A stretch of 64,000 bases of DNA from Promethearchaeota archaeon (GTDB taxonomy: Archaea > Asgardarchaeota > Lokiarchaeia > Sigyniarchaeales > SOKP01): positions 64,001 to 128,000 of the forward strand of contig JBHLNF010000004.1 in assembly GCA_048937405.1 (NCBI GenBank), in the 5' to 3' direction. The notes beneath the pieces are model-generated. The model had not been told where the DNA came from and did no database searches. It was given only the letters and a program-made list of their open reading frames with translations. The number at the start of each line of letters is the position of its first letter. Positions within the stretch are counted from its first letter, which is position 1. Below, piece after piece: positions 6,722-41,039 of this stretch. Position numbers and translations under genes: made by a program.

Positions 6722-6942
6722 TCAATTTTTCCCTGTACTCCCAAATCCCCCTTGTCCACGTTCTGATCCAGTAAATTATCCGTTTCAACGAATTTATAAT
6801 TATATAATTTAGATAAAATAATTTGACAGATTCTTTCACCTTTTTTCAATGTAACTTCTTTATTTGAAAGGTTTACTACAATTGCCATCCATTCATTTCT
6901 ATAACCTGTATCATTCATATTAGGAGAATTCACAATTGATAT
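6722..6942 (-). pseudogene. dut: Displaced 3' half of a dUTPase gene (remnant)
   Basis: Reads ISIVNSPNMNDTGYRNEW...KGERICQII... then a 1-nt deletion, then SERGQGGFGSTGKN*; colinear with 8960..9181 of the intact dut; motif III GTID changed to NMND. Confidence 0.9.
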
Positions 6943-7218
6943 ATTATTCTATAAAAAGATGTAGTTTAAATATAATCTTTTGAAGATTGCTTTAATTAAA
7001 TAGAAAATTATTGGTAACACCTCACTTTTTCGCTTTCTTTGATAATCCATCAATTTGTACAGATTTATACATGATCATTACATCTATGAAAAATCAATGT
7101 ACTTTCTTAATTTATATGAGTTATACTCCACTTAGATAGTTATGATCGCCTATTTTTGTGAAAGAGATTTTCTTAGCTTTATCGCATTATTATATAAAAA
7201 AATGATTCCAATTATGAT

Positions 7219-8808
7219 ATGACTAAAAAATATTGTAAAAAAGCCCAACAAGAAGATAAAGTTAAAAATGTTCCATTAAAATTCAGAGAACCGAATAGGA
7301 TAGCTATTAAATTCATTTGGACTGAAATCGATAATTTCATAATCCTGGAAAGAGAAAAATTTGACAAAAAATTGAAATATTTAGAAGAAATTAAAGGATA
7401 TTATCTTCTGAAAAAAATTGTGATAAAATATTTAGATAGTATTAATTTAATTAGTGAAAATTTAAACTCTAGAAGTAAAATATTAATAGAACGTTCAATA
7501 GTGATGATATATTTATTAAGAGCCAAAAATCCTCCTTCAGATCGACAAATTGCACTTAAAGCAGGCTATAGACAAAGAGCATCTATTATTAAAAAGATAA
7601 AAATTCATTTAGGGATTTTAGAAGAAACTATAACTAACCATATTTGGATGGAAATTGATAATTTTATAACTCAAGAAAGAGAGATGCTTTATAGAAAATT
7701 AGGACATTTAGAAGAGAACGAAAAATATCACCTTATAAAGCAGATAATTATGAAATACTTAATTAATAAAACAAATTTAGTAGATAGAAATCTTTCCCTA
7801 ACCAAGAGAACATCCATAGAGCGAGTTATAGTGATAATTTACTTATTAAGATCTAAAAACTCTCTAAGATTTACTGACATAATGATAAAGTCAGGACATA
7901 AAGATGAAAAACTGATAAGAGATATTGCTAATTATTTTGGAATACATACTCAATTAGAAATTGATTATATAAATCAGACGAGAGTGTGTGCTAGATGTAA
8001 AAAGATGCTTAGTTTTGATAATTTTAATATTTATAATGGAAAAATAAGATCTATGTGTATAAAATGTGATAATATACGAGATGGAATAAACCGATTTCAA
8101 AAAAAATTATTAGCAACAATTTTTATCACATTAAAACACGAAAAAGGGATGACCGTCAAAGAATTCCTTCTGAGAGTGAATCGAGGTGAAAAATTCGATA
8201 TTGAAATTAAATGTCCAGAATGTGGACTTGATTTGTATTTCTTGCCTTCCTATGTTTTTCATCATCCTAATCCTGCACTAAAAACTATTTCCTGGAAAAT
8301 GTTAGCAGTTAAAAAAGTTGAAGACATTATCAGTAATTTAGATGAAGAACAATGTGTTTTTATATGTGGTAATTGTCATAGATTAAAAAAGTCAAAATTT
8401 ATTACGGAACATTTAGATGAAATTTTAACTGAGAATATTGATTGGAAGCATTATAATGACAATGAAAAAAAAAATCTTCGACGTTTAATTAGAAAGAAAA
8501 AGATTTTTGAAGATTTGTATAATGGTGTTTGTTTTTATTGTAAGAAACTAATGGTTGATAAACTTGCTATAATTGATTTTCATCATACTATTGAAGAACT
8601 TAAGGAATATAGTTGGAGTAAAGATCTTAGGGATAATGAAGATATCGAGTATGTTAAAAGGATATTATTAAAAGAAAAACAAGTAGGGGTTTGTCATAAT
8701 TGCCATTACATGGAAACTGCTATATATTTCAATAACAATAAGTATGAGATATTTAGTAAATACTTATCAGATAATATAGTAAATAAACTTAGATTAGAGA
8801 ATAAATGA
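7219..8808 (+). CDS. Free-standing double-HNH endonuclease-like protein with duplicated N-terminal helical domain
   Basis: Two CxxC...FHH...CxNCH modules, a CARC/CIKC zinc finger, and two ~105-aa repeats starting IW.EIDNFI..ERE. Confidence 0.75.
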   Translation: MTKKYCKKAQQEDKVKNVPLKFREPNRIAIKFIWTEIDNFIILEREKFDKKLKYLEEIKGYYLLKKIVIKYLDSINLISENLNSRSKILIERSIVMIYLLRAKNPPSDRQIALKAGYRQRASIIKKIKIHLGILEETITNHIWMEIDNFITQEREMLYRKLGHLEENEKYHLIKQIIMKYLINKTNLVDRNLSLTKRTSIERVIVIIYLLRSKNSLRFTDIMIKSGHKDEKLIRDIANYFGIHTQLEIDYINQTRVCARCKKMLSFDNFNIYNGKIRSMCIKCDNIRDGINRFQKKLLATIFITLKHEKGMTVKEFLLRVNRGEKFDIEIKCPECGLDLYFLPSYVFHHPNPALKTISWKMLAVKKVEDIISNLDEEQCVFICGNCHRLKKSKFITEHLDEILTENIDWKHYNDNEKKNLRRLIRKKKIFEDLYNGVCFYCKKLMVDKLAIIDFHHTIEELKEYSWSKDLRDNEDIEYVKRILLKEKQVGVCHNCHYMETAIYFNNNKYEIFSKYLSDNIVNKLRLENK

Positions 8809-8959
8809 GACATTTTTTATTAACCATGAAAAGAATAAATGTTAGGGGAATTATTTAAAACTAGAACTCAGAAATTGATCTATTCCCACCATTTTCTGTA
8901 TCTAATTAAAAAATTATTCTAACGAATCAGATTATTTTTTGAAAGAAGAAAAAGGATTA

Positions 8960-9466
8960 TTATTTTTTACCAGTTGACCCAAATCCCTCTAAACCGCGTT
9001 CTGAATTAGGTAATTCCTCCATTTCAATAAATTCGTATTCATACATTTTAGCGAGTATTATTTGACAAATTCTATCTCTCTTTTTCAAAATAATCTTTTT
9101 ATTAGAAAGATTTATAACAATAGCGATCCATTCGTTTCTATAACCTGAATCAATTGTACCCGGAGAATTAACAATGGATAATCCTTCAAGTGCAAATCCA
9201 CTTCGAGGTACAACCTTAAAATAATAGCCTTCTGGTATGGCTGTTGAAAAACCTAAAGAGCACCCTACAAGTTCTAAAGATTTTAATGTGTAAGAATCTG
9301 AGTGCACATCAATTAGTTCTTTTTTCCCATTTTTAGAGACTATTTTTTTAAATCCTATAATTCTAGCATCTGCCCCAGCATCCCCAGGTCTAGAGTGATT
9401 GGGGGGAGATACACCTACAGCTAATGTTTTGATGGGGATTGATATTTTCCCATTACTATCTTCCAT
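8960..9466 (-). CDS. dut: Trimeric dUTP diphosphatase
   Basis: GDAGAD, PRSG, NSPGTIDSGYR, RICQ, RGLEGFGSTG (motifs I-V); start uncertain (9466/9487/9499). Confidence 0.93.
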   Translation of the reverse strand: MEDSNGKISIPIKTLAVGVSPPNHSRPGDAGADARIIGFKKIVSKNGKKELIDVHSDSYTLKSLELVGCSLGFSTAIPEGYYFKVVPRSGFALEGLSIVNSPGTIDSGYRNEWIAIVINLSNKKIILKKRDRICQIILAKMYEYEFIEMEELPNSERGLEGFGSTGKK

Positions 9467-9891
9467 TTCTATCTGATTACGTTTCATAATATATATCAAT
9501 ATTTTGTTGTATATTTATATAAAAAAAAATTTTTATTAACTCCTCATTAAACTTAAAGAAAGCAATATATCTCTTGTGAATTATATTTATTCTCAATATA
9601 CAATCAATTATAAAATAAATAAATAATAATAGGGATATAATTTTGTCATTTAAATTGTATAAGAATTTGTATAATTTTGCATTAATATAATAATTAATTG
9701 AGAGTATTTTCAATTTATCGAATGAATATCTTTTTCATTTTTATAAGGGAGTAAATCATTCTTCATTCTAAAAATCAACTCTTCAAAAATTGAGAATTAT
9801 TCTAAAAAATATAATACCTTCAATGATAATTTGAGCAATAACTAATTATGCTAATTCAATAAGAAAACAAAGTCTAAAATATCTCCATAAA

Positions 9892-10063
9892 TCAATAATG
9901 ATAAATATCAAAAATCCACGCTTTTCCACTTGTATTTTCTATTGCTTTTGCAACTTCTTTTTGCCTTCCTGGAGCAATCGCAAGCATACAACCACCACCA
10001 CCAGCTCCCATTTGTTTTGCTCCAAGTGCACCAGCATTTTTAGCGGCTTCACATAATTTTAAA
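9892..10063 (-). pseudogene. C-terminal fragment of a GHMP kinase (galactokinase/mevalonate kinase family)
   Basis: Translates LKLCEAAKNAGALGAKQMGAGGGGCMLAIAPGRQKEVAKAIENTSGKAWIFDIYHY*; no N-terminal part upstream. Confidence 0.8.
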
Positions 10064-10163
10064 ATTTTTCAAAATAAGAAAAAAAGTCGAGATATCATTT
10101 TAATGGATAACTCTAATAAAAACATTATTCATTTAAACATATTATAAATCATTATATTCCCTA

Positions 10164-10301
10164 TGGTGAAAAAATTGATTAATATCGATAGATACGACCC
10201 TAAAAAAAGATTAAGAAGTATTAAAGGCAATTTTTAAAGATTTTATAGGGATCTTATCTTTTTTCTTTTCTCTTTGGGAAATCTATGGAAAGTAATTAAA
10301 C
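10164..10301 (+). pseudogene. Decayed copy of the RBS and first ~40 codons of the GNAT-like gene at 12187
   Basis: tggtgaaaaaattgattaatatcgatagatacgaccct... aligns with 12176..12313 (tggtgaaaaaaatgattgttatcgatagatacgaccct...); +1 insertion and in-frame stops. Confidence 0.88.
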
Positions 10302-10311
10302 TATACAAAAA

Positions 10312-11790
10312 TTAATTACAGTAAATTGGAGGTTTTTTGTCGATCCATGGTCTATCTTGTTCTAATTGTGCTGCTAAACGGAAGAGAGTAGCTTCATCAC
10401 CAAAAGGAGCTGCAAATTGAATACCTATTGGGATATTATCAGCAGTCCAATATAAAGGAACTGACATAGCAGGTTGACCACTTATATTATAAATTGTAGC
10501 AAAAGCGTTAAGTTTGGTTAATAATTGAATAATCTTTCCTGCTTTTGATAAATTAACTGAAGAGAAAGAGCCAGATTTTATTGGAGGAATTGTAAGAGAT
10601 GTGTTCAGTAGTAGATCAAAATTTCCTTTATGAAACCAATATGCTAATTTCCGTGAGAAACGTTGACAATGTTCTACTGCTATTAGATAATCAGTCCCCG
10701 TCTGAGTTGCTGCCATCTGATAAATTAACCATGTAAGAGGCTCTAATTCATTCTGGGTTATTTTTTTATTTAGCTTTCTTTCCCAATATCTAATTATCTG
10801 ACCAGTAGAGCTGGAAAATATAATACCAAAATGTAAGAAAAGGTTTTCATAACTTAATTCTTCAGAATTTACTTCTTCAACGTTATGACCTAGTGTTTCA
10901 CAGAGTTGAGCTGTATCTCTTATTGCTTTTTCACATTCTGGATGAACTTTTGTCTTAAAGCTCCAGCCACTAGGAATTGAGGTTAAATATCCAATTTTCA
11001 GACGACCTACATCCTCTTCAACTTCTTCTAAGAAAGCACGTTTCTTTGGGGGTGCATAATATGGATCCCCTATGTCTGGTCCCGATGTTGCATCTAAAAG
11101 AGCAGCAGAATCTCTTACAGTGCGAGAAAGAGCATGATCTACGGCGATTCCATTAGCATAATCTCCAAGATATGGACCAAGAGGATTTCTAGCACGAGTA
11201 GGTTTCAACCCAAAAACCCCACAACAAGAAGCAGGTATACGAATAGATCCTCCTCCATCGTTTCCGTGAGCTATAGGTACGATCCCTGTTGCTACAGCTA
11301 CTGCTGATCCACCACTTGAACCACCAGGGATTATATTCGGATCCCAAGGATTTAAAGTAGGACCAAATAACTTAGGTTCAGTTGTCGGAAGACACCCAAA
11401 TTCAGGGGTATTTGTCTTTCCAACCGTGATTAATCCAGCTGTTTTATGCCGTTTTACTAATTCTGTATCTAAAGGCGCAATATATCCATGAACTACTGCA
11501 GAACCCTCACTTAATGGAGCATTACCATATTCTGCAATAAGATCTTTTAATAAAAATGGAACTCCACCAAAAATCACATCAGTCTTTTTACCTGAACTAA
11601 TATCATTATCCCATTTTTTCGCTTTTTTACGTGCAGTATTATACATCTTATGGATTACAGCATTAATTTTAGGATTAATCTTTTCAATTCGTTCGATAGT
11701 TATCTCTACTAATTCAGATGACTTAATTTCTCCGTCTCGTATCATTTTTGCTAAGCCTAATGCATCATATTCAACCAATTTAGTTTCCAA
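10312..11790 (-). CDS. Amidase-signature family amidase
   Basis: [36 protein letters not shown] (Lys-cisSer-Ser triad); TTG start. Confidence 0.92.
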
Positions 11791-11881
11791 TAAGTCTCAC
11801 GCTTAATATTTGTTTTTTATTGGATTATTTTTTTAATAGTTATAAATTAAGATAAATAGGCTTTTATAGATATGTGTATAT

Positions 11882-12037
11882 AAATCAGATTATAAATCAG
11901 TTCTCTAATTTATCGATAATTTACATGAATTAGTAGATAAATATTAAAAATTAGTAAAGGAACTTGAAAAAACAGAAAAACCTAAAAAAAGTAAAAATTA
12001 TATAGAATTGGTGGAAAAATTACCTGAATTTTTATGA
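11882..12037 (+). pseudogene. Possible decayed 3' gene fragment of unknown family
   Basis: Protein-like frame KSDYKSVL*FIDNLHELVDKY*KLVKELEKTEKPKKSKNYIELVEKLPEFL* with two internal stops. Confidence 0.4.
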
Positions 12038-12186
12038 TATTTCCATCATATTATAAGTTTTTTGCATTCTCAAGTTGAATTTTTAATCTATCCTTTTTTG
12101 TTTCTATTTTAAACAAAGATTTTCATAAAAAATTAATAATATTTTTAATTATTTTGATAAATATTAAAATTTCATTGGTGAAAAAA

Positions 12187-12642
12187 ATGATTGTTATCGA
12201 TAGATACGACCCTAGAAAGGATAAAGAAGCATTACAAGAAATTTTTAAAGAATTTATCGCTAATAAAGCTTATTTCTTCTCTCATTGGGAAAAGTTTGAG
12301 GAAGAACTAAATCGGAGAACTCTCGATCTTCAATATAGAAATTCAATGGTTATTGCAAAAGAAGATGGAAAAATTTTAGGTTTTGGAACGTATACCCTTT
12401 TTAGAGATTATTTAGGAAATGATAGAGTACTTATTCATCAAGTTCTTACAAGAAAGATTGATTCTTTTAAATTAGGGATAGAAGAGAAAATAGTGCGGGA
12501 ATTGCAATTATATGTTAAAAGAACCCTAAAAATTGATAAAGTCTATTTTATTTGTCCTGATTCTGATGGGGCTTCAAGAAGTCTTTTCCTAAAACTTGGA
12601 ATAAAGAAATCACGTTATATTTGGTATGAAAATGAAATTTAA
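12187..12642 (+). CDS. GNAT-fold protein
   Basis: VIAKEDGKILGFG, SLFLKLG pattern; GGTGA RBS before ATG 12187. Confidence 0.7.
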   Translation: MIVIDRYDPRKDKEALQEIFKEFIANKAYFFSHWEKFEEELNRRTLDLQYRNSMVIAKEDGKILGFGTYTLFRDYLGNDRVLIHQVLTRKIDSFKLGIEEKIVRELQLYVKRTLKIDKVYFICPDSDGASRSLFLKLGIKKSRYIWYENEI

Positions 12643-12683
12643 TTAAGATTCTATTTTTTTCTTAAAGAAAGTGAAAAATCTTC

Positions 12684-13211
12684 ATGACAAATTTAAATAA
12701 TGCTAAAGATCTTATTAAAAAAGTTAAAGAATTAAGAAATCAAGAAAATTTTGAAGAAGCTCTAAAAATAATTGAAGATTTATTTGAAAATTTTCCCAAT
12801 TCTGAAGAAATTAAAGAAGTATTAATTGACACATTATTTGATTATGGAGGATATCTCAATGATTATTATACAATTGGATATGAAAAAGCTCAACAATATT
12901 TTGAGAGAATTACTATTCTAAGCCCACAAAATTATAGAGCACACTATAATTTAGGATTGGCTTATTTTAATTTAGGAAAAATTGAAAACGCTAAGATATC
13001 TTTCGAAAAAGCTTTAATAATCAAACCAGATTATAAGTATTGTCTTTATAATCTAGGAATAGTCTATGAAACTTTAGGACAATATGAAAAAGCGTTAGAT
13101 TATTTTGAACAAGTATTAGAAATCGATTCGGATTTTAAATATGCATTATCAGCAAGATCTCAAATAAGAGAAATATTAGATAAATTAAAATATAAGAAGA
13201 GAAGGGATTAA
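12684..13211 (+). CDS. Tetratricopeptide repeat protein
   Basis: AHYNLGLAY...FEKAL...P; LYNLGIVY...ALDYFEQVL. Confidence 0.9.
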   Translation: MTNLNNAKDLIKKVKELRNQENFEEALKIIEDLFENFPNSEEIKEVLIDTLFDYGGYLNDYYTIGYEKAQQYFERITILSPQNYRAHYNLGLAYFNLGKIENAKISFEKALIIKPDYKYCLYNLGIVYETLGQYEKALDYFEQVLEIDSDFKYALSARSQIREILDKLKYKKRRD

Positions 13212-13232
13212 TCTTAAAAATAGATAAAGAAG

Positions 13233-13367
13233 TTAATCTTCCATTAATTTCCGATGAATTGCACAGCAAACTATAATAATCACTAATACTACTATTCCAC
13301 CTATAAGATATCGAAAAATTATTGGGTCGGATAAGATATCTAAGATATCACCAATTGACTGAAACAT
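13233..13367 (-). CDS. 44-aa single-pass membrane microprotein
   Basis: MFQSIGDILDILSDPIIFRYLIGGIVVLVIIIVCCAIHRKLMED*; AAAGGGGT RBS 4 nt upstream; below ORF-track cutoff. Confidence 0.7.
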   Translation of the reverse strand: MFQSIGDILDILSDPIIFRYLIGGIVVLVIIIVCCAIHRKLMED

Positions 13368-13485
13368 ATTTACCCCTTTCTTATAATTATTTAAATCTAA
13401 ATAGAATTCGTTATATTTAAAATTTAAGCATAATTGGATTAAAAATCTTTATAAAATGAAAAAAAATTAGTAATAGATTAATTTT

Positions 13486-13692
13486 TTATCTTTCTAATTG
13501 GAAATTTACTTGAACGCGAACTCTGTATATCAATTTATCAATATCTTCTTTTACCTTCACATCCGATTCAATAATTTGTATGTTTCGGATACCACGGAGA
13601 GTTTTTTTGGCTTCATTATAACAATTCTTTACGGCGTCAGCCCAATTTTTATCAGAGGTTCCAACTAATTGAATACTTTTATAAACTGTCAT
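13486..13692 (-). CDS. Dodecin (flavin-binding)
   Basis: VYKSIQLVGTS..WADAV...A.KTLRGI...YRVRVQVNF. Confidence 0.9.
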   Translation of the reverse strand: MTVYKSIQLVGTSDKNWADAVKNCYNEAKKTLRGIRNIQIIESDVKVKEDIDKLIYRVRVQVNFQLER

Positions 13693-13861
13693 TTTGATTT
13701 CACTTCTAAATTGTTTTCTTTGTAAGTTTATTTGTTATAGTTTAGTATTTAAATATTTCGCAGAAAACGGATTAAATTAAGAGTTTTAAGATAATAATAA
13801 CAAATTTACTAAATCTTACAGCAGAATATAGAAAAAAAAGAAAATTAGAATTTATATAAAG

Positions 13862-15151: not shown

Positions 15152-15250
15152 TATATATTATCCCTCAATTTTAAGTAATTTTACTAATTTATTTTTAAAA
15201 ATTTTAGATATTAAACTAGGAAGTGTTAAAATAATATTAAACTTTATTAT

Positions 15251-15270
15251 AATGACAATAAGTAGTCATT
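15251..15270. promoter_or_regulatory. Palindrome AATGAC-N8-GTCATT, candidate operator between thiolase and purE
   Basis: aatgacaataagtagtcatt. Confidence 0.4.
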
Positions 15271-15353
15271 GTAGACCCATTTGAAATAAATTTAATATAG
15301 GATAAACAGATATTTGGTTTAGTTACTATTAAGAAATTACTAGAATTATTTTT

Positions 15354-21776: not shown

Positions 21777-24401
21777 TTATCTCTTGAGGACTTTATGATT
21801 TTTTATGTTTTTTAACAGAATTAATGTAATTCCTATAAATGCGATTACCAGAAAGCTTATATCAAAACTAGGAATAAAGCTAGTTTCCCAATATTTTATT
21901 TCAAACTTGCTACTATAATCATAAATGTTAGCATCAGAGGAATCAATAATATTTATTTGATATTGTGTGGAATCAGACAGGTCGGAGGGTATTTTCCAAT
22001 AGTACACCCCATCATTTAAGATATTGGATTCTATTGTCTGAATAAAATATCCATTCCTATATAATGTAATGTCAACCATGGAAATATTACCTGTTGATTT
22101 CCATTCAATATAATAAAACTTGTTAGTTTCCCAAAAACTACTGCTGTTTGGACTATTTACATTTATATTCTTAAGGTTATAGATTTCGAAATATTCACTA
22201 TAATCATACTCAGTTGGATCCGTAGAATCTGTGATTTTTATTTGATATTGAGTAGAATTTTTCAAAGCAGTAGAAATTGACCAATTGAATTCACCTTCGT
22301 TTGATATCTCGGATACTATTGTCTGAACTAACGTTCCCTCTTTATACAGCGTGATATTAACATCTGAGATGTTGCCTGCTGAATTCCAATAGATGTAATG
22401 AGACGTGCCTGTTTCCCAAACTGATGAATTATTGGGAGAATTAATGGATATTTCATGTTCTATTTCAGTTATATTTAAAATCTCCAATCCATCCTCACCA
22501 TTAGCTACATAAGCATAAGAACCAGAAATATATACTCCCTCTGAAAATCCTCCATCAAAATAATCTCCTAATTTCGATGGAGCAGAAACATTAGAAATAT
22601 CAATAATCTCTAAACCCTCATTTTCATTAGCTACGTATGCATAAGAACCATTAACATACACTCCACGGGCAGATCCTGTACCGTAGTACTGTCCTAGTTC
22701 TGATGGCATAGAAGGATTGGAAATGTCAATAATCTCTAAACCCTCATATGCATCAGCTATATAAGCATAAGAGCCAGAAATATATACTCCATAGGCAAAT
22801 CCTCCATCATAGTAATGTCCTATTTCTGTTGGTGTGGATGGATCAGAAATATTAATAATCTCTAATCCATCTAAACCATCAGCTACGTAAGCATAAGAGC
22901 CATTAACATACACTCCATTGGCAGATCCTCCATCTGAATATTGCCCCACTTCTGAGGGTGTGGTCGAATTGGAAATGTCAATAATCTCTAATCCATCTGA
23001 TCCATCAGCTACGTAAGCGTAAGAACCATTAACATACACTCCATTGGCAGATCCTCCATCTGAATATTGCCCTACTTCTGAGGGTGTGGTCGGATTGGAA
23101 ATGTTAATAATCTTTAATCCAAAAATATTATCCACAACATAAGCATAAGAACCATTAACATACACTCCACGGGCAGATCCTGTACCATTATAATGTCCTA
23201 CTTCTGATGGTATAGAGGGATTGGAAATGTTAATAATCTCTAAACCATTATCTCCATCAGCCACATAAGCGTAAGAACCATTAACATATACTCCATAGGC
23301 ATATCCTCCATCAGAATATTGCCCCACTTCTGATGGTGCGGACGGATTGGAAATGTTAATAAATACTAATCCATCAAAAGCATCAGTAACATAAGCATAA
23401 GAGCCTGAAACACAAACTTCATACGCATCCCAATTATCATACTGTCCTACTTCTGATGGTGCAGACGGATTGGAAATATTAATAATCTCTAATCCATCAT
23501 ACCCATAAGCCAAATAAGCATAAGAACCATTAACATATACTCCATGGGCATATCCTCCATCTGAGTATTGTCCCACTTCTGATGGTGTGGACGGATTGGA
23601 AATGTTAATAATCTCTAATCCATCATACCGATCCGAAACATAAGCATAAGAATCAGAAACAAACACATCAACAACAGTTCCCCCATCATTGAATTGTGAT
23701 ATTTCTGAAGGTGCGGATGGATTGGAAATATCAATAATCTCTAATCCATCAGAGTAGTCTGTAACATAAGCGTAAGAACCATTAACATATATTCCATTGG
23801 CATATCCTCCATCTGAATATTGCCCCACTTCTGATGGTGTGAATGGATTAGAAATGTCAATAATCTCTAATCCATTATTCCAATCCGCAACGAAGGCATA
23901 TGAGCCTGAAACATATACTCCTTCAGCAGTTCCTCCATCATAGTACTTTCCTACTTCTGATGGTGCGAATGGATTGGAAATATTAAGAATCACTAAACCA
24001 TTATTTCCATAAGCCAAATAAGCATAAGGGCCAGAAATATATACTCCTAGGGCAAATCCTCCATTGTCATATTCTCCGACTTTATTTGGTGCAGAAGGAC
24101 TTGATATATTTATTATCTTTAATCCTCCATAACCATCTGCTACATAAGCTAATGACTTATTAACAACTACATCATGCGCGCCTTGATCTAAAATATCAGC
24201 TATTTTTGATATTTCTATAGAAACGGTAGACTTATTTAGGTCATCTTGAGTAATTTCTTTAATGATTTCGTTTCCATGATAATGTTCTCTACTAAATGAA
24301 TTTAAAACAAAAAAAGTAGAAAAAAGAAATAAGGAAATACCTAAAGTAAGACTTATCATCCTTTTCATTGATTTCAATTTGATATTAAAAAAATTTTTCA
24401 T
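21777..24401 (-). CDS. Surface LVIVD-repeat beta-propeller protein with two Ser/Thr-rich beta-sandwich domains and Loki-CTERM-like anchor
   Basis: 14 repeats of ~42 aa (GVYVNGSYAYVADG..GLEIIDISNP), two NSPN..S.WET domains, IPSFD+TM+basic tail; start 24401 or 24368. Confidence 0.88.
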   Translation of the reverse strand: MKNFFNIKLKSMKRMISLTLGISLFLFSTFFVLNSFSREHYHGNEIIKEITQDDLNKSTVSIEISKIADILDQGAHDVVVNKSLAYVADGYGGLKIINISSPSAPNKVGEYDNGGFALGVYISGPYAYLAYGNNGLVILNISNPFAPSEVGKYYDGGTAEGVYVSGSYAFVADWNNGLEIIDISNPFTPSEVGQYSDGGYANGIYVNGSYAYVTDYSDGLEIIDISNPSAPSEISQFNDGGTVVDVFVSDSYAYVSDRYDGLEIINISNPSTPSEVGQYSDGGYAHGVYVNGSYAYLAYGYDGLEIINISNPSAPSEVGQYDNWDAYEVCVSGSYAYVTDAFDGLVFINISNPSAPSEVGQYSDGGYAYGVYVNGSYAYVADGDNGLEIINISNPSIPSEVGHYNGTGSARGVYVNGSYAYVVDNIFGLKIINISNPTTPSEVGQYSDGGSANGVYVNGSYAYVADGSDGLEIIDISNSTTPSEVGQYSDGGSANGVYVNGSYAYVADGLDGLEIINISDPSTPTEIGHYYDGGFAYGVYISGSYAYIADAYEGLEIIDISNPSMPSELGQYYGTGSARGVYVNGSYAYVANENEGLEIIDISNVSAPSKLGDYFDGGFSEGVYISGSYAYVANGEDGLEILNITEIEHEISINSPNNSSVWETGTSHYIYWNSAGNISDVNITLYKEGTLVQTIVSEISNEGEFNWSISTALKNSTQYQIKITDSTDPTEYDYSEYFEIYNLKNINVNSPNSSSFWETNKFYYIEWKSTGNISMVDITLYRNGYFIQTIESNILNDGVYYWKIPSDLSDSTQYQINIIDSSDANIYDYSSKFEIKYWETSFIPSFDISFLVIAFIGITLILLKNIKNHKVLKR
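22470..24180. repeat. Coding tandem repeat array, ~126-bp unit, ~14 copies
   Basis: e.g. ccattaacatacactccattggcagatcctccatctgaatattgcc recurs at ~22900 and ~23026. Confidence 0.9.
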
Positions 24402-24566
24402 GATATATTTTCCTTTAAATTTGATTTTAAAAGAATAATTGGAAATACTGAATGAATTATATTTCAATTTTTGGGATATTTATATGCTTTATTTAAAAAT
24501 TATACTATTTAAATTATTTAGATAGATAGCAAAAATATTTACATCTCAACTTCAGTTTTATATATC

Positions 24567-32776: not shown

Positions 32777-32855
32777 TAAAAATATTGATTTTTCAAAATA
32801 CTTGAATTAAGAAAATGAAAAAACAATAATATAAGAAATTTTTCAATATAATTTA

Positions 32856-33647
32856 TTATCTATCAGCACCAGGTATATCTTTACCTTTTGTTATTACCTT
32901 TGTTATTCCCTTTTTTACTAATTTTGTTGGATCCACTAAATTTTTAAGCCCCTGCACTGCGGCATCCCCAGCTTGTCCAATAACATCTCCGCTAATAGTT
33001 CCCCCTCCAATCAATTCTTCTGCAATCACGCCAACTGCTGGAGTTAATGCTGCTGAAACGATGGCTGTTACTGCTGCTACTGCTACAAACTTAGCAATCT
33101 TAAGTGCAATTGGACTGTCTTCTCCTTTCGTAGATTTTTCATCATCTCCCACAGCTTCTAATGACCTCGTAAGCCCTTTTATTAATATATTTAAAGCATC
33201 TTCTTTCTTTTCTTTATTTCCTTTATAATATATCCCATCCTTGTATGCAGATTCTAAAAATTTAGTCAAAGATTTGTATTTTTCAATTTTTTTGTACCCA
33301 TTCCAATCCTCTTCTTTGAAATTTGTCAAGATGGTATTACATGGCTTTCCGTTAGTGACATTGAAAACATATATTTTTGGTTCCTTTTTATCACTTAAGT
33401 AAATAGCTTCATAAATAAAATCTCCAAGCTCTTTCTTATTTCCAATCAAGATCCTGAAATTAATTTTATCAGTAGTACCAATCAAACCCTTAGAAAATTT
33501 TGCTAATGCTACTTTACCTTTTTTTGCTTTCTTTTCATCCTCCAAAACAGTATCAGAACGTTTTTCTTCAAAATAATCATTTAGAACATCAAAAGCATCT
33601 TTAAATAGCTTTTTAGCTTTATCAATCTCCTTTCCCATAAATTTCAC
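32856..33647 (-). CDS. Hypothetical protein with C-terminal Ala/Gly-rich hydrophobic segment
   Basis: 263-aa ORF; FVAVAAVTAIVSAALTPAVGVIA. Confidence 0.7.
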   Translation of the reverse strand: MKFMGKEIDKAKKLFKDAFDVLNDYFEEKRSDTVLEDEKKAKKGKVALAKFSKGLIGTTDKINFRILIGNKKELGDFIYEAIYLSDKKEPKIYVFNVTNGKPCNTILTNFKEEDWNGYKKIEKYKSLTKFLESAYKDGIYYKGNKEKKEDALNILIKGLTRSLEAVGDDEKSTKGEDSPIALKIAKFVAVAAVTAIVSAALTPAVGVIAEELIGGGTISGDVIGQAGDAAVQGLKNLVDPTKLVKKGITKVITKGKDIPGADR

Positions 33648-33938
33648 TTCATTTTAATAGATTCGAGTTACAATAAATATTAAAATTAAGATATTTATGT
33701 TTATTTCTTTTGAAAAGCGAAATTGAACATATTAGACATTTCCTTCTTAGTTGTCTTGTTTATAATATCGCTAAATTATATTTTTATTTTTTGTATTCTA
33801 TTCTCTTTGAATTTTTCTGACAAGAAAAAGGCAAAATTTTGCTTTTTTAAACAAGATTCCTATACTTAAATAATATTAAATCTTAAATAATAATTAAAGA
33901 ATTAATTTTCTCAATAACATAAATACAAATTGAGTTAA

Positions 33939-34292
33939 ATGAGTGAAAGAATAACTGAAATACTCGATAGTTTAAAGTCGATAAAGGGTGTTCACGGTGC
34001 GGCTTTAATTGAGAAATTTGGGCTAATAAAAGGGAGTGCTCTGCCTGGTTGGGTTGATCCCGAAGCTGTTGCCGCAATGGTGACATTAATATTAAAGGCG
34101 AGTCAGAGAGCAACCAAAGAACTGGAACAAGGTCAATTCTTTAGCGCTATAATAGAATCTGAAAAAGGTAAAATCCTTTTTAGCGAAATTAAAGGAAATA
34201 TTTTGACCATAATTACCACTCGTGAGGCAAAATTAGGTATAATTAACTTAAAATTAGATGCTGCTAGTACAGCATTAGGCGAATTGATTTAA
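33939..34292 (+). CDS. Roadblock/LC7 (MglB-like) protein
   Basis: IKGVHGAALI..FGLI, EAVAAM, IIESEKGKI, AKLGII. Confidence 0.9.
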   Translation: MSERITEILDSLKSIKGVHGAALIEKFGLIKGSALPGWVDPEAVAAMVTLILKASQRATKELEQGQFFSAIIESEKGKILFSEIKGNILTIITTREAKLGIINLKLDAASTALGELI

Positions 34293-34311
34293 TTTTTTAT
34301 ATTTCTTTTTT

Positions 34312-34420
34312 TTAAAAACTTGTATATTAGTTTATTTCTGTTTCTCATAAAATTCTTTTCTTAAGATTAAAATCCACTAATATTAATTTTCAAAGTTAAT
34401 TTTCTATAAGAATATCAAAT
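34312..34420 (-). pseudogene. Probable decayed copy of the promoter and 5' end of the membrane gene 32306..32776
   Basis: Colinear anchors ttaaaaa..ttctc..(25 nt)..atccactaa..tatt.atttt.caaa shared with 32712..32820. Confidence 0.5.
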
Positions 34421-34580
34421 AGCGTTTCATGAAAGATTAAAAATAGAAACCAGAGTTATTTATACTAATTTTAATAGCTTTCCATATATTAACTGTTTTC
34501 AATCGATTAAACCTCTGGGTGAATGTAAAATTCAGTGAAACAACCTTAAAAAGTAATTTAAACAATTTTTTAGTAAATGT

Positions 34581-35150
34581 CTATTTCTGGAGTAGTTTTG
34601 CGACTTTTAGAATATTAAGTCCAAGAATTTCTGCTTGTCTTAACCGATTCTCTTGGTTTAAAATATCACCTGGTTCGTCAGCTGTAGCCGTTACTCCATT
34701 TAATTCACCAGGAACACATATTATCCCACACGAGAGCATCCATGTATAAATGGCATTAATTGTGATTGTTTGACCTCCACATGTTCCACGACCAACTGCG
34801 ATGGCTCCACCTACTTTCCCTTCTAAAGGTCTATCAAATTTTTGTGAATAATGTCTATCAAGTACAGAGAGTAATTGGGAACTCATATTTCGAGAATAAA
34901 CAGGACTTGAGATTATGATGGCATTACACCATCGAAACGCTTCATAAATACTTTGCATATCATCATTAATAATACAAGTACCAGTCTCTCTACATGACTC
35001 GCATGCATTACAAGGTTTTATTGTTAATTTACTTAAAAGAAAAATTTTAACATCCCATTCATTATTTTCAAAAGGTTTAAGAGCATACCTTAAAAGAATT
35101 TCACTATTCCCTTTATTCCTAGGAGTCCCTGATATACCCATAACATTCAT
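34581..35150 (-). CDS. Iron-sulfur flavoprotein (flavodoxin-like)
   Basis: GISGTPR..GNS, CNACESC....C..DD, SPVY, GGQ. Confidence 0.9.
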   Translation of the reverse strand: MNVMGISGTPRNKGNSEILLRYALKPFENNEWDVKIFLLSKLTIKPCNACESCRETGTCIINDDMQSIYEAFRWCNAIIISSPVYSRNMSSQLLSVLDRHYSQKFDRPLEGKVGGAIAVGRGTCGGQTITINAIYTWMLSCGIICVPGELNGVTATADEPGDILNQENRLRQAEILGLNILKVAKLLQK

Positions 35151-35318
35151 TTTTTTTGACCTTAATATTATTTTTATCAATAGATTATTTTACAAATATA
35201 TAAAATTATTTCTATACTCTTTTTTTAATGAATTAAATTTTAGTGAGTTAATTTTACTTTCTAAATTTATAACTTAAGATTTAAATCGTAATAAAGATAA
35301 TTTTCTTATGAAAAAATT

Positions 35319-36239
35319 TTGAAGGTGATCAATATAGTAATTATAAATTCTGAGGGTAAATATGATGATAATTATTATTTATTAGATGGTATGACTATGG
35401 GACTGCAGAAATTTCTTTCAATTTATATTGTAGAACATAATGAAATGCGATTAATGATTGATGTCGGAGAAACTTTAAAAATTCGCAAAATTTTAAAAAA
35501 ACTCAAAGAGATGGGATTATATCCAATCCATAAAATCTTATTAACTCATTCTCATTGGGATCATGCTCAAGGACTTTCAAAAATAAGAAGTTCAATGAAA
35601 GATTTGGATATTGAAATATTAGCTTCTGAAAATGCTATTGAGAATTTAAAGCATCCTGAAAATATGATTGAAGGATTTGAAAATATGGGTGATTTATATC
35701 CTTTTGACGAAGAGATTACTCCTTTGAAGGAAGGAGACATTATTGATATAAATGGATTAGAATTAGAAGTAGTCAACTTATTTGGACATACTATGGATTC
35801 TATAGGGATTATTGATAAAATCAATAAAAATATATTTGTGGGAGATGCAATTTTGATGAGATTAGATCAAAATGCTTTTTTTGTACCTCTCATGCCACCT
35901 GATTTTCATGAAACAGAACTTTTGAAAACATTTGATAAATTGAGAAATATGAAGGATGATTTTAATTCCCTCTCTTTAGCGCATTTTGGGGTTTGGAAAG
36001 ATGATCATTTCGTTCAAATTTTAGAAGAGATGGAAGATCTCTATTTTAAAGTTAAAAACTCCTTAATTAAATGGTATAATGAAGATTCATCAATTGAAGT
36101 TATAACAAATAAATATTTTAAAACTATAGTGCCTAATTCAAAAGTTTGGAACGAGAAACTATTTATATTTCTCGTAGATATGATGATAAATGGTTTAAAG
36201 TATAGTGGATTAATAAATGAAAAAATTATTTCTCATTAA
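35319..36239 (+). CDS. Metallo-beta-lactamase-fold hydrolase
   Basis: THSHWDH, GHT, FVGDA, LAHFG; start uncertain. Confidence 0.9.
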   Translation: MKVINIVIINSEGKYDDNYYLLDGMTMGLQKFLSIYIVEHNEMRLMIDVGETLKIRKILKKLKEMGLYPIHKILLTHSHWDHAQGLSKIRSSMKDLDIEILASENAIENLKHPENMIEGFENMGDLYPFDEEITPLKEGDIIDINGLELEVVNLFGHTMDSIGIIDKINKNIFVGDAILMRLDQNAFFVPLMPPDFHETELLKTFDKLRNMKDDFNSLSLAHFGVWKDDHFVQILEEMEDLYFKVKNSLIKWYNEDSSIEVITNKYFKTIVPNSKVWNEKLFIFLVDMMINGLKYSGLINEKIISH

Positions 36240-37733
36240 TCATTTCTTTTTTTTGATTATCCCTTTCTCTCTTAATAGTTTAAGTACAATATTTCTAGAA
36301 ATATGAGGATCAGCTTGTCCTTTAGTTTTTTGCATTATTTTTCCAATTAACGCTTCTTTTGCTTTTGGATTTGCACGACAATCTTCCACAATCTTTGGAT
36401 TCTCTTCTATAACATCATTCCCTAATTTTATAAGAAAATTTTCATCGGATATTCTTTTTTTACCTTTTATTTCAAGAATTTCTGAAATGGAAAAACCTTC
36501 TATCATATCTTCTATTATAGTTTTTGCAATTTTGGTCGTAATTTTTCCTTCATTAATGTATCTGATAATATCAATGATTTGATGCGGGTGCAATTTTGTG
36601 TCTTTTATTGATTTATTTTGTTCATTTAATACTCTTAAAACATCATTCATTAACCAATTGCAGTATTGTTTATATTCATTGGACCCGAATGAAGCATCAG
36701 AATTTACACCTTCCTCGTAAAAATCGGCGATATCTTTATCCAGAACTAGGTTATCTGAATCAAATTCCGACAAATTGTATTCTCTCCTAAGCCTTAATGA
36801 TCTCTCATTTGGCATTTCAGGTAATTCATCTTTAACTTTTTGTATAAAAAGATTATCTATTTCTATTGGAACTAAATCTTGTTCAGGAAAATAACGATAA
36901 TCTGCTTCAAATTCTTTTGTTCTTAAAGAAATTGTAATTCTTCTTTTATCATCCCAATGTCTTGTTTCCTGCTGTAATTTCTTTCCTCGTTTAAGTGAGT
37001 TCTTTTGTCTTACAATTTCATGTCTTAAGGCTCGTTCTACTTCTTTAAAACTATTAATATTTTTAACTTCACTACGCTCATACCCCTTAATTGAGATATT
37101 AGCATCCACCCTTACTGATCCTTCAAGATCCAAACTCGAGATTCCTGTATACTGAACTATTGATTTTAATTGCTTTAGAAATTCACGTGCTTCTTCAGGT
37201 GAACTCATAACTGGTTCAGTCACTATTTCTATTAAAGTGACTCCTGATCTATTATAATCAACGAGCGTATAAGGTGAAGTTGCTATACTTCCTTTATGAA
37301 CTAGTCTTGCGGGGTCTTCTTCTAAGTGAATTCGATTGAGAATTATATCTTTCTTATGAGAATTTAATTTAATAGTAATTTTTCCACCATCTGCAAAAGC
37401 CTTTCCCCCCGCCTTATTATATTGACTTATCTGAAATCCTTTCGGAAGGTCTGGATAAAAGTAATTCTTTCTAAAGAACCAAAAAGAATCGTTTATATCA
37501 CAATCTAAAGCTAGAGCTAATCGTGTAGCAAATTCTATCGCCTTTCTGTTTATTACTGGCAATGAACCAGGAAGTCCGATACATATTGGACAGATATAAG
37601 TGTTTGACTCTGCACCTCGGTAATCAGTACTACAGCTACAAAAAAATTTCGTTTTTAGTTTTGTTAATTGGATATGTATTTCTAAACCAATTATTACTTC
37701 TTTATCTTTATATTCTAAATTAGAAAGCGTCAA
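36240..37733 (-). CDS. gatB: Asp/Glu-tRNA amidotransferase subunit B
   Basis: IGLEIHIQL, RKNYFYPDLPKGFQISQY, HLEED, DYNRSG, DYRYFPE; TTG start. Confidence 0.96.
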   Translation of the reverse strand: MTLSNLEYKDKEVIIGLEIHIQLTKLKTKFFCSCSTDYRGAESNTYICPICIGLPGSLPVINRKAIEFATRLALALDCDINDSFWFFRKNYFYPDLPKGFQISQYNKAGGKAFADGGKITIKLNSHKKDIILNRIHLEEDPARLVHKGSIATSPYTLVDYNRSGVTLIEIVTEPVMSSPEEAREFLKQLKSIVQYTGISSLDLEGSVRVDANISIKGYERSEVKNINSFKEVERALRHEIVRQKNSLKRGKKLQQETRHWDDKRRITISLRTKEFEADYRYFPEQDLVPIEIDNLFIQKVKDELPEMPNERSLRLRREYNLSEFDSDNLVLDKDIADFYEEGVNSDASFGSNEYKQYCNWLMNDVLRVLNEQNKSIKDTKLHPHQIIDIIRYINEGKITTKIAKTIIEDMIEGFSISEILEIKGKKRISDENFLIKLGNDVIEENPKIVEDCRANPKAKEALIGKIMQKTKGQADPHISRNIVLKLLREKGIIKKKK

Positions 37734-37805
37734 AGCTGATAAATTATAAAGTATAAAAATATAAAAAATTCACTCTTAACTTAAAAAATTAATTATAAAT
37801 AAATT

Positions 37806-39548
37806 TTAAAAATTTTGAGAGTATTTATCCATAATTTGTCTATAACTTAAAGTCCTAACACCATTTTTTTCAAAAAGTCTCTCATAAAATTCATGAACTT
37901 CATCCCAAGTCATTTTTTTATATGATTTTAACTTAAATTTTTCTCCAATAATATTCCTCGGATTCATTCCACAACCCAATGACTTAATAGCTACATCCCG
38001 TCTTAATTTCTTTTGAATGCTGTCGAAAGATAAACCTCTAGTTCCTACTAACAAATGGGAAATCTGTTGATATATATAATATACCATTTCTCTTGATGTA
38101 CCAATTTTTTTCCCTATAATAATACCTGTTTTTCCTTCTATTATCCATTCTTTATATTGACCAATATCAACTCCTCTCATAAGAGTTTTTAATTTATAAC
38201 TTGAAGTACCTAAAAGATCATTTTCTTTTTTTTTTGATTCAATATGTGTTTTAACAATTTTAACGTCTAAATATCCATATTTTTTAATTATTTCCTTTAA
38301 ACATTTAATTGAACCGAAATATCGGTCAAATTTATTATTTGACCAATCCAATAAATCCAAAATATCTTTTTTCATGATATTTCTATCATATTTTAATAAT
38401 TTTTCCAGAATTGGTAACATAAATTTTAAGTATACATTTTGTTGCTTACCCAACATATTTTTGATTTGTCGATTTAATTCTCTGATTTTAAGATGCTCTA
38501 AATTTCTGTATTGTTTTTTTATTATTTCAGTAATAGAAATGTATTTTACACCAAGAGATAGCATTCCTAAAATATCCAACCAAGGAAGTTTGTAAACTAT
38601 ACCGCTTATACCACGCCCTCCTCCACCTTCTCGTTCATTTAATCCATTCTCTACGGTTCCAATAGTTCCATCATCATTTCTATATGAACGGGTATATTCT
38701 CTCTCTCTATCCCGTGCTATTCCTACACCTCTAGTTATTTCTACTCTGACAATATCAAAACAACATTTAATAATATCCTCTCTAATATAGTATAACCGTA
38801 TTTTATACTCTTTAGTACCTTTAATTTCAACTAAATCAGTATAAATTTCCTCAAAAGTTACCCCTTTTGACAAGAGTCTACTATATTTAATATTTAATTT
38901 TATTGCTTTCCTAATTGCGCTATGCAATTTTATAAGCGATACATGCATGTGATTTTCCTTACAAATCCCACGGGGTGCTAAAGATTCCATAATATGTTCT
39001 TCAATTCTTCTATTTAAATCATCAGTAAATCCAAAATATGACATCCCCTTAAATGGTTTTATTTTGCATTTTAATTGATATACCATGTGGGTTATTCCTA
39101 AAATAAATCTATTTCTCCAAATATCTTCATTGTAATCCATAAACAATTTCTCACCTTCTGGTGTATAACTGTCTAATGTCCTTTGAGAACCTTGATGTGA
39201 TTTAGAATTTCTGAATCCATATTCAAGCTTGATTAAATAGGACTTTTTATCATTATACCAACGTTCTATAAAAGATTTAGATGATTGTAAGAGTTTTTTA
39301 ACTTTTGGGCTACCTTCATGTTTTACAAAAATTGATTTTCTAACCAAAGAATAACCTTTTAAAAAGCCAACACCATCAATGGATATTTGTAACTCTATTT
39401 CTGGGTCATAAGTTTTTCTCACTAATTTATTAATCTGGGTAGAATCATCATTTTGGTGAGATTGGATATTTTCATCAAAAAATGTATTATTTTTATAATT
39501 ATTCAGTTTTTTTTTTGGGTTATCAGTACAATATAGTTTATCATTCAT
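37806..39548 (-). CDS. Free-standing GIY-YIG endonuclease-like protein with C-terminal HTH-like region
   Basis: VYQL...SYFGFTDDLNRRIEEH, ERE, GLNEREGG; IGKKIGTSREMVY HTH-like. Confidence 0.65.
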   Translation of the reverse strand: MNDKLYCTDNPKKKLNNYKNNTFFDENIQSHQNDDSTQINKLVRKTYDPEIELQISIDGVGFLKGYSLVRKSIFVKHEGSPKVKKLLQSSKSFIERWYNDKKSYLIKLEYGFRNSKSHQGSQRTLDSYTPEGEKLFMDYNEDIWRNRFILGITHMVYQLKCKIKPFKGMSYFGFTDDLNRRIEEHIMESLAPRGICKENHMHVSLIKLHSAIRKAIKLNIKYSRLLSKGVTFEEIYTDLVEIKGTKEYKIRLYYIREDIIKCCFDIVRVEITRGVGIARDREREYTRSYRNDDGTIGTVENGLNEREGGGGRGISGIVYKLPWLDILGMLSLGVKYISITEIIKKQYRNLEHLKIRELNRQIKNMLGKQQNVYLKFMLPILEKLLKYDRNIMKKDILDLLDWSNNKFDRYFGSIKCLKEIIKKYGYLDVKIVKTHIESKKKENDLLGTSSYKLKTLMRGVDIGQYKEWIIEGKTGIIIGKKIGTSREMVYYIYQQISHLLVGTRGLSFDSIQKKLRRDVAIKSLGCGMNPRNIIGEKFKLKSYKKMTWDEVHEFYERLFEKNGVRTLSYRQIMDKYSQNF

Positions 39549-39920
39549 ATTTGAAATTGATTCCTCCCAATTAATTTTTGGTTGTTTCTAGGGTATTAAA
39601 ACATACTTTTCATTAGCTATACTATTTTCGCTTATACTGATAAATCAGTTAATTAGTCTATTTAAATATTATAATCTATCTAATTTAGTAATTTTTAATC
39701 CTTTTCATAAATACAATATGTAGAATTTACTTTTTTATTGGACTAATTAATTTATTTGCATATTCTGATTATATAAGCCGTTGAAACGACAATTTAAAAC
39801 TTTTAGAAAGCTAGCTTATCTTACCAATCTATAGTTTATTAGAATTTAGAAGTTCAATAATATAATTTAGTTCTGGTTTTCGAATTAAGAGTAATAAATC
39901 TTTATAACTAAATAGGGTAT

Positions 39921-40691
39921 TTAGTTAGTAGAAGGAAATAATAATTTCATCTGTGATTGAATTTCACGTTTATTCCATATAGAAATCTCATATAATATCT
40001 TGTAAAAGAAATTTATGATTACTTTTGGATCTTTAGTATCTTTTATTTTATCAAATTCATCCAATTTTTGTTCTAAAGACTGAAAATTGAATTTATTATT
40101 AGGATAAAATTTTTGAATAAATCGTTTTGCTTTTCTAAGATAATTTTTTACACTAATAAAATACTCATGATTTTTCATTTTATCTATAATTTTTAAAGAT
40201 AAATAATATCCTATAATTGTTTTATAACTATGAACAATGTTTATTGGTTCACCTTTAATATTACCTTTATTCTTAGCATCTTTCCATAAATGAGCATCAT
40301 CAATATATAATTCATATAGTCCTTTAAATTGAATCAGATTATAATCGACAAAACAATCTAGTAAATGATTTAAAATTAAAAAAAGACCTTCAAATATCTT
40401 ATTTTTTTTTATACCAGATCCTGCAAAATACATGTAATCTGTTTTTTTTGTTAAAAAAATATGACCTAATTCATGAATTGGTGTAAAATCATTGTCTGAA
40501 GGAAGTAAATATATACCCCATTTTTTCTCTTTTTCGTACCATTGCAAAAAAGCCCTATTTTTTGCAGAAATCCCAATATCGATGTCTTCTTTTTCTAAAC
40601 CTAAAATATTTTTATATTTCATTAAGAGTTGTTCCAATTCTTTGAGTCTTTTTACTTCTTTAGAGGTTAATAAGATTGGTTTTTTCGACAT
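39921..40691 (-). CDS. HExxH zinc metallopeptidase-like protein
   Basis: IHELGH followed by NHLLDCFVD. Confidence 0.6.
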   Translation of the reverse strand: MSKKPILLTSKEVKRLKELEQLLMKYKNILGLEKEDIDIGISAKNRAFLQWYEKEKKWGIYLLPSDNDFTPIHELGHIFLTKKTDYMYFAGSGIKKNKIFEGLFLILNHLLDCFVDYNLIQFKGLYELYIDDAHLWKDAKNKGNIKGEPINIVHSYKTIIGYYLSLKIIDKMKNHEYFISVKNYLRKAKRFIQKFYPNNKFNFQSLEQKLDEFDKIKDTKDPKVIINFFYKILYEISIWNKREIQSQMKLLFPSTN

Positions 40692-40980
40692 ATTGAGTCT
40701 ATTGTTTACTTTCTCTGTCTTTAATTAATATTTAGTTTACCAATTATAATTGCATTTTTTAGAACGACTTAATTAATTGTTCTTTGCAACTATTAAATAA
40801 TTATAACTCTCAGATGATTTACTAAATATTAGTAGAATTCTTAATCACAAAGATAATTGATTTATTCAATGCTTAAAAAAAATTGAATTCTGAAATTTTC
40901 TTCAATATCCGATCTGATTATAAAAAAGATACATTTTAATCTGGAATATTTAATTGATTCTTATACTATTATAGAAAATC

Positions 40981-41037
40981 GACTAATTAAATATGAACTT
41001 CTAAACCAATGATAACATCATTATTTTGAATGCTGAT
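40981..41037 (-). pseudogene. gatB: Displaced original 5' end of gatB immediately after gatA
   Basis: GGAGGT-8nt-ATC AGC ATT CAA AAT AAT GAT GTT ATC ATT GGT TTA GAA GTT CAT ATT TAA TTA = (M)SIQNNDVIIGLEVHI*L versus intact KEVIIGLEIHIQL. Confidence 0.85.
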
Positions 41038-41039
41038 AT

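Follow-up and report, generated by a model that had tools for sequence, protein, structure and literature searches.

We analysed a 64,000-nucleotide (nt) stretch of DNA (the window; G000:C17:64001-128000) from a Promethearchaeota archaeon whose assembly, G000, comprises 4.47 Mb in 29 contigs of low GC with 5.7% contamination. At several loci of this window an intact gene is separated by accessory cargo from a decayed copy of one of its own ends, which lies in the same orientation and is here called a scar. The layout is real and recurrent, and reflects two known kinds of process, not one new route. The two processes, which give the same picture, are probably the homing of endonuclease cassettes at dut and gatB and, elsewhere, a nuclease-free insertion with duplication of the target. 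The original prediction had proposed a single general route by which cargo arrives with its own copy of a gene terminus; this was not sustained, as dut brings a whole gene, the GNAT gene is native, and most scars are nuclease-free and show no foreign terminus. The closest relative compared was G036, called a sister species (amino acid identity 89% for gatB and 92% for GNAT), and locus context was compared in 20 dut-GNAT loci and 20 gatA-gatB loci of relatives. The significance of a scar was judged from its alignment score against the maximum obtained with shuffled sequences.

The dut and gatB loci

The dut scar (6697-6941) aligned to the 3' end of the intact dut gene with a score of 208, compared with a shuffle maximum of 71, and carries a single 1-nt deletion near 6777. 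In the tree it is the sister of the G036 allele, with support of 99/88. The live dut is 69% (5' part) and 75% (3' part) identical to G036 at the nucleotide level, and a breakpoint test found no change point within it (p 0.09). At the amino acid level it is 82–87% identical to most other cassette-borne alleles and at most 74% identical to its near-full-length matches in 130 genomes, and the cassette-borne alleles cluster at 100/99, separate from host alleles. These comparisons indicate that the scar is the native allele and that the intact dut is foreign throughout, not chimeric. The proposal that the scar is a distinct allele was thereby borne out, but it is the whole of the intact gene, not its 3' end, that was replaced.

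The foreign dut is part of a 2.76-kb unit that also contains a convergent gene for a predicted HNH endonuclease (Table 1). The start of the HNH homologues lies approximately 22 codons upstream of the start at 7219, and the corresponding upstream extension in G000 contains stops. Four close homologues (69–82%) and three further contigs all place the HNH gene tail-to-tail with a dut. One locus, L428, keeps the full structure: native dut codons 20–104, a unit matching 6946-9701 at 84%, and then the native 3' rest. The junction is base-identical in G000, L171/L428 and L174, where it falls at the Leu-Trp codons that follow an RSG motif, with TTTAT at either end. At this position the sequence of the carried allele is RSGFALEG, compared with RSGLALW or a close variant keeping the Trp in 41 of the 42 genomes sampled. 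The carried allele thus lacks precisely the codon at which the insertion lies, as would be expected if that allele escapes its own predicted nuclease. Three further cases may be read as stages of a homing cycle: a chimeric dut with a host-like start and a cassette-like rest (L429), a truncated HNH gene adjoining an intact, Trp-bearing dut (L430), and a Trp-less dut allele without HNH (G034). The G034 gene (L072:7205-7729) combines the Trp-less site with a divergent 5' part and a host-like 3' part, and is possibly a resolved cassette.

Relatives without the cargo show the ancestral state at both loci. The dut and GNAT genes are adjacent in 20/20 loci, with neither the HNH nor the amidase cargo in any of them, and gatA and gatB are adjacent in 20/20, with neither the GIY-YIG nor the 256-amino-acid (aa) cargo gene in any. 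The dut and gatB scars therefore sit where the ancestral gene order predicts, as had been claimed. The native 5' half of dut was sought at 9700-10100 (p 0.22) and 11790-12150 (p 0.42) and was not detected in either interval. Because a remnant of a GHMP kinase, not the native dut 5' half, lies there, further rearrangement has occurred between the dut cassette and the GNAT scar. A single block that split dut and also brought in the GNAT scar was unsupported, given the undetected 5' half and the native-clade codons of the GNAT scar. No inverted repeats at the cassette ends were found among the 25 longest listed. Modelling of the HNH protein with AlphaFold gave a pLDDT of 53, too low to support a fold search, and a sigma-70 promoter scan, a type of scan unsuited to archaea, gave chance-level results.

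At gatB, sequence comparison indicates that the live gene is a true chimera and that the scar is its native old terminus, as originally predicted. Identity of gatB to G036 shifts from 75.2% to 90.7% at nt 348 (permutation p<0.002; triplet test p 1e-10), and a control comparison of G036 with G001 showed no break at this position. In the tree, the 5' part is not sister to G036, unlike the 3' part. The native stub behind gatA was not significant when aligned to the intact gatB (score 52, shuffle maximum 61), but aligned to G036 it scored 97 against a shuffle maximum of 32. Breakpoint tests on replaced and retained segments, which had been suggested for all of these genes, thus located a break in gatB but none in dut or GNAT (p 0.09 each).

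The cargo at gatB includes a predicted GIY-YIG endonuclease gene, and both this call and the HNH call at dut hold by profile matches and motifs. The second cargo gene had been called a metallopeptidase; the 256-aa product has zincin-like structural neighbours only. Two homologues of the GIY-YIG protein (P0007 and P0008, 53–55%) occupy the same gatA-gatB site with other passengers. In L175 the order is gatB stub, four cargo genes, GIY-YIG gene and gatB, and the stub ends at the same motif as that of G000. In L178, gatB codons 6–104 are followed by a DUF5677 gene, the GIY-YIG gene, a full second gatB and then native remnants; the native gatB is broken at codons ~104–106, just upstream of the G000 crossover. 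The carried gatB allele is altered at the target in L178, and in G000 mainly by synonymous change. Locus-specific homologues thus back the proposed involvement of endonucleases at dut and gatB, with the site association of the GIY-YIG gene weaker than that of the HNH gene. More distant GIY-YIG homologues show the same layout at other genes (L210, L226). A PDB sequence search with the GIY-YIG alignment gave nothing significant, and a GIY-YIG scan of the genome_contigs collection gave no match. Two additional observations concern this site and family: in G036 a separate insert of 1.9 kb, with an overlap of 29 bp, lies between gatA and aspS (L081:13445-15319), and one distant GIY-YIG homologue adjoins a group II intron-type reverse transcriptase gene (L201:2566-6095).

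Table 1. Features of the window at the dut, GNAT, FMN-reductase and gatB loci
Feature	Position	Strand	Basis
Native dut 3' half, probably stranded by the cassette; 1-nt deletion near 6777	6706..6945	-	83.6% to G036; continuous with native wHTH gene; tree
Candidate HNH-dut homing cassette, made up of a complete dut allele and a convergent HNH gene, each with its upstream region	6946..9701	.	84% over 2824 nt to L428
Predicted double-HNH endonuclease gene (two helical repeats, zinc finger, two CxxC..HH..CxNCH units)	7219..8808	+	phrog_2255 (PHROGs), E 7.7e-16; alignment
Cassette-borne dut allele, foreign throughout, without Trp codon at insertion site (near 9187)	8960..9499	-	Nucleotide identity; amino acid identity; Trp comparison
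GHMP-kinase C-terminus remnant, where native dut 5' half would be expected	9916..10059	-	42% amino acid identity, E 5e-5, to G000 ORF
Decayed 5' copy of GNAT gene (coding from 10165) and upstream DNA	10112..10300	+	77% to both intact copy and G036
Amidase cargo	10312..11790	-	PF01425; close homologue in 1/53 genus genomes, other context
Intact GNAT gene (probable start 12187), native throughout	12154..12642	+	95% to G036 in duplicated part; no breakpoint, p 0.09
FMN-reductase insert with short intergenic duplication (~34292-34372 and 35204-35290)	34373..35203	-	81-bp overlap in G036; PF03358; site empty in relatives
Native gatB 3' part	36240..37385	-	90.7% to G036; sister to G036 at 100/100
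Foreign gatB 5' part (nt 1-348)	37386..37733	-	75.2% to G036; change point; triplet test
Predicted free-standing GIY-YIG endonuclease gene	37806..39548	-	PF01541 (Pfam E 1e-4); catalytic-type Y, R, E, N residues
Passenger gene, 256 aa, zincin-like hypothetical	39921..40691	-	No Pfam match; structural neighbours
Native gatB 5' stub (~16 codons) behind gatA stop	40984..41039	-	~93% over 56 nt to G036

Inserts with a duplicated target in the window

The GNAT/amidase locus shares the layout and has no nuclease gene. Its scar (10097-10300) scored 171 compared with 84 for shuffled sequences, and the first 45 nt are 89% identical to the clade of G000, G036, G001 and G031, compared with 64–80% to others. 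The original prediction had the 5' end of the GNAT gene replaced on arrival of the amidase cargo. The scar and the cargo are there, but the intact 5' end is native and without a breakpoint; replacement is not demonstrated, and the locus is best read from its sequence as an older insertion whose duplication probably came from the cell itself or a close relative. An FMN-reductase insert with a short intergenic duplication has the same character. At its edge lies one arm of a 51-nt inverted pair (34371-34421 / 47145-47195, 78% complementary).

The layout had been claimed for four loci, of which dut, GNAT and gatB proved real. The fourth, at a membrane gene with a roadblock gene and a hypothetical gene as supposed cargo, was rejected: a scar was sought there and nothing exceeded chance (p 0.11 and 0.71), and the order of membrane gene, hypothetical gene and roadblock gene is ancestral in relatives, G036 included. 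The sole insert at this fourth locus is the FMN-reductase gene. No integrase, transposase or recombinase gene was found in the inserts of the window, in agreement with the original reading.

The window encodes roadblock and Ras-type genes, and three other features of it were recorded. An 896-aa gene (21777-24467) contains at least 13 copies of a 126-nt repeat. Of a 248-aa membrane gene (45887-46633), G036 retains the last 21 codons only. A 26-codon fragment (54170-54247), just upstream of the ORF at 54257, resembles the N-terminus of the gene at C17:222683.

Gene-end scars across the genome

Scars were counted across G000 with open reading frames (ORFs) masked, and 30-nt matches running from an overlap into tandem paralogues were excluded from the final count. 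Insertion polarity was defined as a 5' copy upstream or a 3' copy downstream of the gene, on the same strand. Within 15 kb, 51 gene-end copies had insertion polarity, compared with 5 in the six other arrangements; at 15–30 kb the numbers were 1 with and 5 without. This confirms that the layout recurs, as had been proposed from the window. The 51 scars comprise 22 5' and 29 3' copies, with a median length of 106 nt, identity of 83% and gap of 2 kb, at a density of ~11 visible events per Mb. Samples of 0.4 Mb each from G036 and the single-contig genome G006 yielded 3 and 2 scars. Empty sites were found in relatives at about ten loci, with single-copy overlaps of 47–309 bp; a fixed repeat length near 210 bp was dropped in view of this range. 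The duplication takes in an end of each of the two neighbouring genes at three loci. For the crossed locus on C22, no orthologue was found in the three relatives searched.

A potential concern is whether the layout results from local tandem duplication followed by decay, or from assembly chimeras of co-occurring strains, given the 29-contig assembly, its contamination, and the tandem paralogues present at some loci. However, the scars contain stops and frameshifts, some are common to G000 and G036, and the layout also occurs in G036 and in the single contig of G006. In addition, the dut and gatB layouts recur in independent assemblies, and the dut scar and its live counterpart are not sisters in the tree. 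Such an origin is very improbable overall and is already contradicted for dut and gatB.

We compared terminus with core at third codon positions for 24 scars, a test of low power (18–82 third positions) to which conspecific donors are invisible. A foreign end was found at dut and gatB, with weak, uncorrected signals at infB (p 0.018), dinB (p 0.027) and uvrA; the rest showed no foreign end, and most of the 24 showed no drop of terminus relative to core. The claim that these insertions make core genes chimeric was thus borne out for a minority only, including gatB. At several loci both copies share derived changes, and several scars are 93–95% identical to the live copy. The cargo is mostly ordinary, with TPR, Ras/Roc GTPase, MCP, glycyl-radical and glycosyltransferase genes. 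Among its 84 proteins one transposase match was found (top 25 families listed), and no restriction-modification family is among the top 25 Pfam families.

These results bear on the possibility that one route, driven by endonucleases that also act in trans or have since been lost, brings foreign ends nearly everywhere and renders many core genes chimeric. Such a route holds for gatB, and the uncorrected signals at infB and dinB, the endonuclease-like genes of G000 (at least 14) and the varying passengers of the gatB cassette are compatible with it. Against it stand the lack of a foreign end at GNAT and at most tested loci, the scars nearly identical to the live copy with derived sites in common, and the ordinary nature of the cargo, and we consider it quite improbable.

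An endonuclease gene is present at about 6 loci (dut, gatB, infB, a ribD-like gene, C20:1786 and an lpd-like gene on C11) and absent from ~45 of ~52. Conversely, 6/14 of the endonuclease-like genes found in G000 lie inside scars, compared with about 90 of some 3,800 ORFs. The opposite possibility is that one nuclease-independent route, either homology-facilitated illegitimate recombination or single-crossover integration, formed all loci, with nucleases as linked passengers. The similar layout with and without a nuclease and the nested cargo at one gene end agree with such a route, and the mechanism is documented in bacteria (PMC3240628, PMC5361080). It does not predict the share of nuclease genes found inside scars, the coincidence of the L178 break with the G000 gatB crossover, or the base-exact shared dut junction at the codon deleted from the carried allele, although a common origin in one event could account for the junction being shared. 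We regard this alternative as unlikely.

Individual loci illustrate the range of cargo. On C11 (G000:C11:17722-21718), and outside the automated count, a 630-aa HNH gene lies between the lpd-like gene and an in-frame 190-nt copy of its 3' end. The ribD-like gene (L135:1018-3235; G000:C7:328017-330235) has a 47-bp 5' duplication around a 360-aa endonuclease-like gene, and the site is empty in five relatives. A LAGLIDADG-like gene lies between a 296-aa gene and the 5' scar of that gene (L168:787-3385; G000:C20:1786-4385). A 10.4-kb block of glycosyltransferase-type genes lies behind a hisS-like gene with a 129-bp duplication (L158:962-12865; G000:C28:480461-492365). Two successive scars of one gene's 3' end are found at L148:1157-4638 (G000:C25:108156-111638), where insertion was sequential, since only one of the two cargo genes is present in G033. 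A 514-aa cargo gene (L142:1554-3139) is 88% identical to a gene on another G001 contig, which suggests movement within the lineage. Two further members of the genus show the layout in the neighbourhood of the locus studied here, at a wHTH gene with three cargo genes (L069:3086-10707, G005) and at a HAD gene with a TPR gene (L078:1198-5030, G014).

Mechanism and relation to known systems

The layouts, junctions, empty sites, allele origins and genome-wide polarity are directly observed. What we infer from them is that the nucleases cut, that the carried allele is immune, how the break is repaired and how DNA moves between cells. At dut and gatB we propose site-specific, intron-less homing-endonuclease cassettes, with nuclease genes predicted from sequence. 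The nuclease would cut the uninvaded allele, at the Leu-Trp codons after the RSG motif of dut or near codons 104–106 of gatB, and the break would be repaired using the donor chromosome. Because the cassette cannot splice, it would need to carry a host allele, and it would supply its own allele with an altered target, either all of dut and the region upstream of it, or ~116 codons from the start of gatB. The native piece, once displaced, would decay into a scar. Scar and flanking genes could serve as homology arms, such that the same junction recurs across lineages and passengers are carried along. For GNAT/amidase, the FMN reductase and the majority of the ~50 other loci, we propose that cargo without a nuclease was inserted together with a target duplication of ~50–310 bp. 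Homology-anchored additive recombination would have copied the duplicated segment from the recipient itself or from a close relative. The gene would stay intact only when the duplicated interval covers a gene end or spacer, and for this reason the survivors would look like gene-end scars.

Several points weigh against this two-process interpretation. Few of the cases are independent, because L171 and L428 are apparently a single element and several of the contigs belong to the same sample series. G000 no longer has the native 5' half of dut, whose history there is drawn partly from L428. For the 5' part of gatB, an approximately unbiased (AU) test does not reject grouping of G000 with G036 (p 0.07), and immunity at gatB is not evident from the protein, because the target region differs from G036 mainly synonymously. 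The closest GIY-YIG homologue, P0006 (71%), has no gatB within the following 1.3 kb of its 2.5-kb contig. Genome-wide, erosion of tandem paralogues may account for some of the 51 scars, and the low power of the terminus test and its blindness to conspecific donors apply to the scars in which no foreign end was found.

The gatB cassette resembles the mobile ORFs (mORFs) of fungal mitochondria, which form gene hybrids at atp6 of Allomyces macrogynus and at atp6, atp9, cox2 and nad3 of Glomus (PMC3630166). In both, a free-standing GIY-YIG or, in mORFs, also a LAGLIDADG gene arrives with a foreign terminus, and the displaced native terminus is closer to a near relative than the inserted one is (PMC3630166). 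The archaeal elements differ in residing on a chromosome, in bringing a 5' end (gatB) or a whole gene with its upstream region (dut) instead of a C-terminus, in the HNH enzyme at dut, and in their variable passengers. A hybrid of this type, with a foreign live terminus and a native scar, is found at gatB and also in the dut of L429, but not at dut or GNAT in the window.

A second parallel is intronless homing in phages by free-standing endonucleases such as T4 SegF, SegG and MobE (PMC6083498). As there, a free-standing nuclease gene lies beside a gene whose uninvaded allele is cut and whose own allele is co-transferred, although cutting is here a prediction. The target of SegF is gene 56, which encodes a dCTPase/dUTPase. 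Phage elements lie between genes and replace the allele, usually without a scar. The dut cassette, unlike these, lies inside the native gene like a non-splicing intron, with both halves as flanks and a full gene carried within. Features of homing elements found here are a nuclease fold and catalytic residues in stand-alone ORFs, patchy presence and association with a fixed target site.

The majority class resembles insertion with long target duplication (Nobusato et al. 2000; Furuta, Abe and Kobayashi 2010, PMC2853133), known from bacterial restriction-modification genes at 9/760 locus pairs, with no archaeal case passing the screen (PMC2853133). Common to both are cargo without integrase or transposase and long, variable direct repeats (about 45–420 bp there) that are single at the empty site. 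The GNAT and FMN-reductase loci show a direct repeat >30 bp, an insert <20 kb and a single copy at the empty site. Unlike those cases, the cargo here is metabolic and signalling, at about 11 insertions per Mb. A possible route for this class is homology-facilitated illegitimate recombination, described in Acinetobacter, Streptococcus and Pseudomonas (PMC3240628, PMC5361080), in which donor DNA is added through a single homologous anchor plus a single non-homologous join, and part of a resident gene can be left stranded; it differs in having no fixed site and in having been shown in transformable or conjugating bacteria. No description of such cassettes in Asgard archaea was found in the literature searched, whose coverage left out most subscription journals, and two papers on Asgard mobile elements do not contain them.

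A broader proposal, conceivable but doubtful, is that short-homology additive recombination, partly primed by a large pool of free-standing homing endonucleases, is a main route of gene gain in this Asgard lineage and moves signalling genes such as small GTPases. The nuclease units would then behave like introns that bring along a spare gene in place of being spliced out, and would spread immune core-gene alleles between genera. Closer at hand, the dut cassette offers a directly testable nuclease-target pair, for which the available sequences supply a predicted cut site, alleles of both the sensitive and the altered kind, and several putative stages of a homing cycle. The gatB gene is a translation gene with about 116 foreign codons and can distort Asgard marker trees. 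The count across the genome points to frequent insertion without a recombinase in this lineage, a process described as rare in bacteria, and such insertion leaves a countable record of gene gain.

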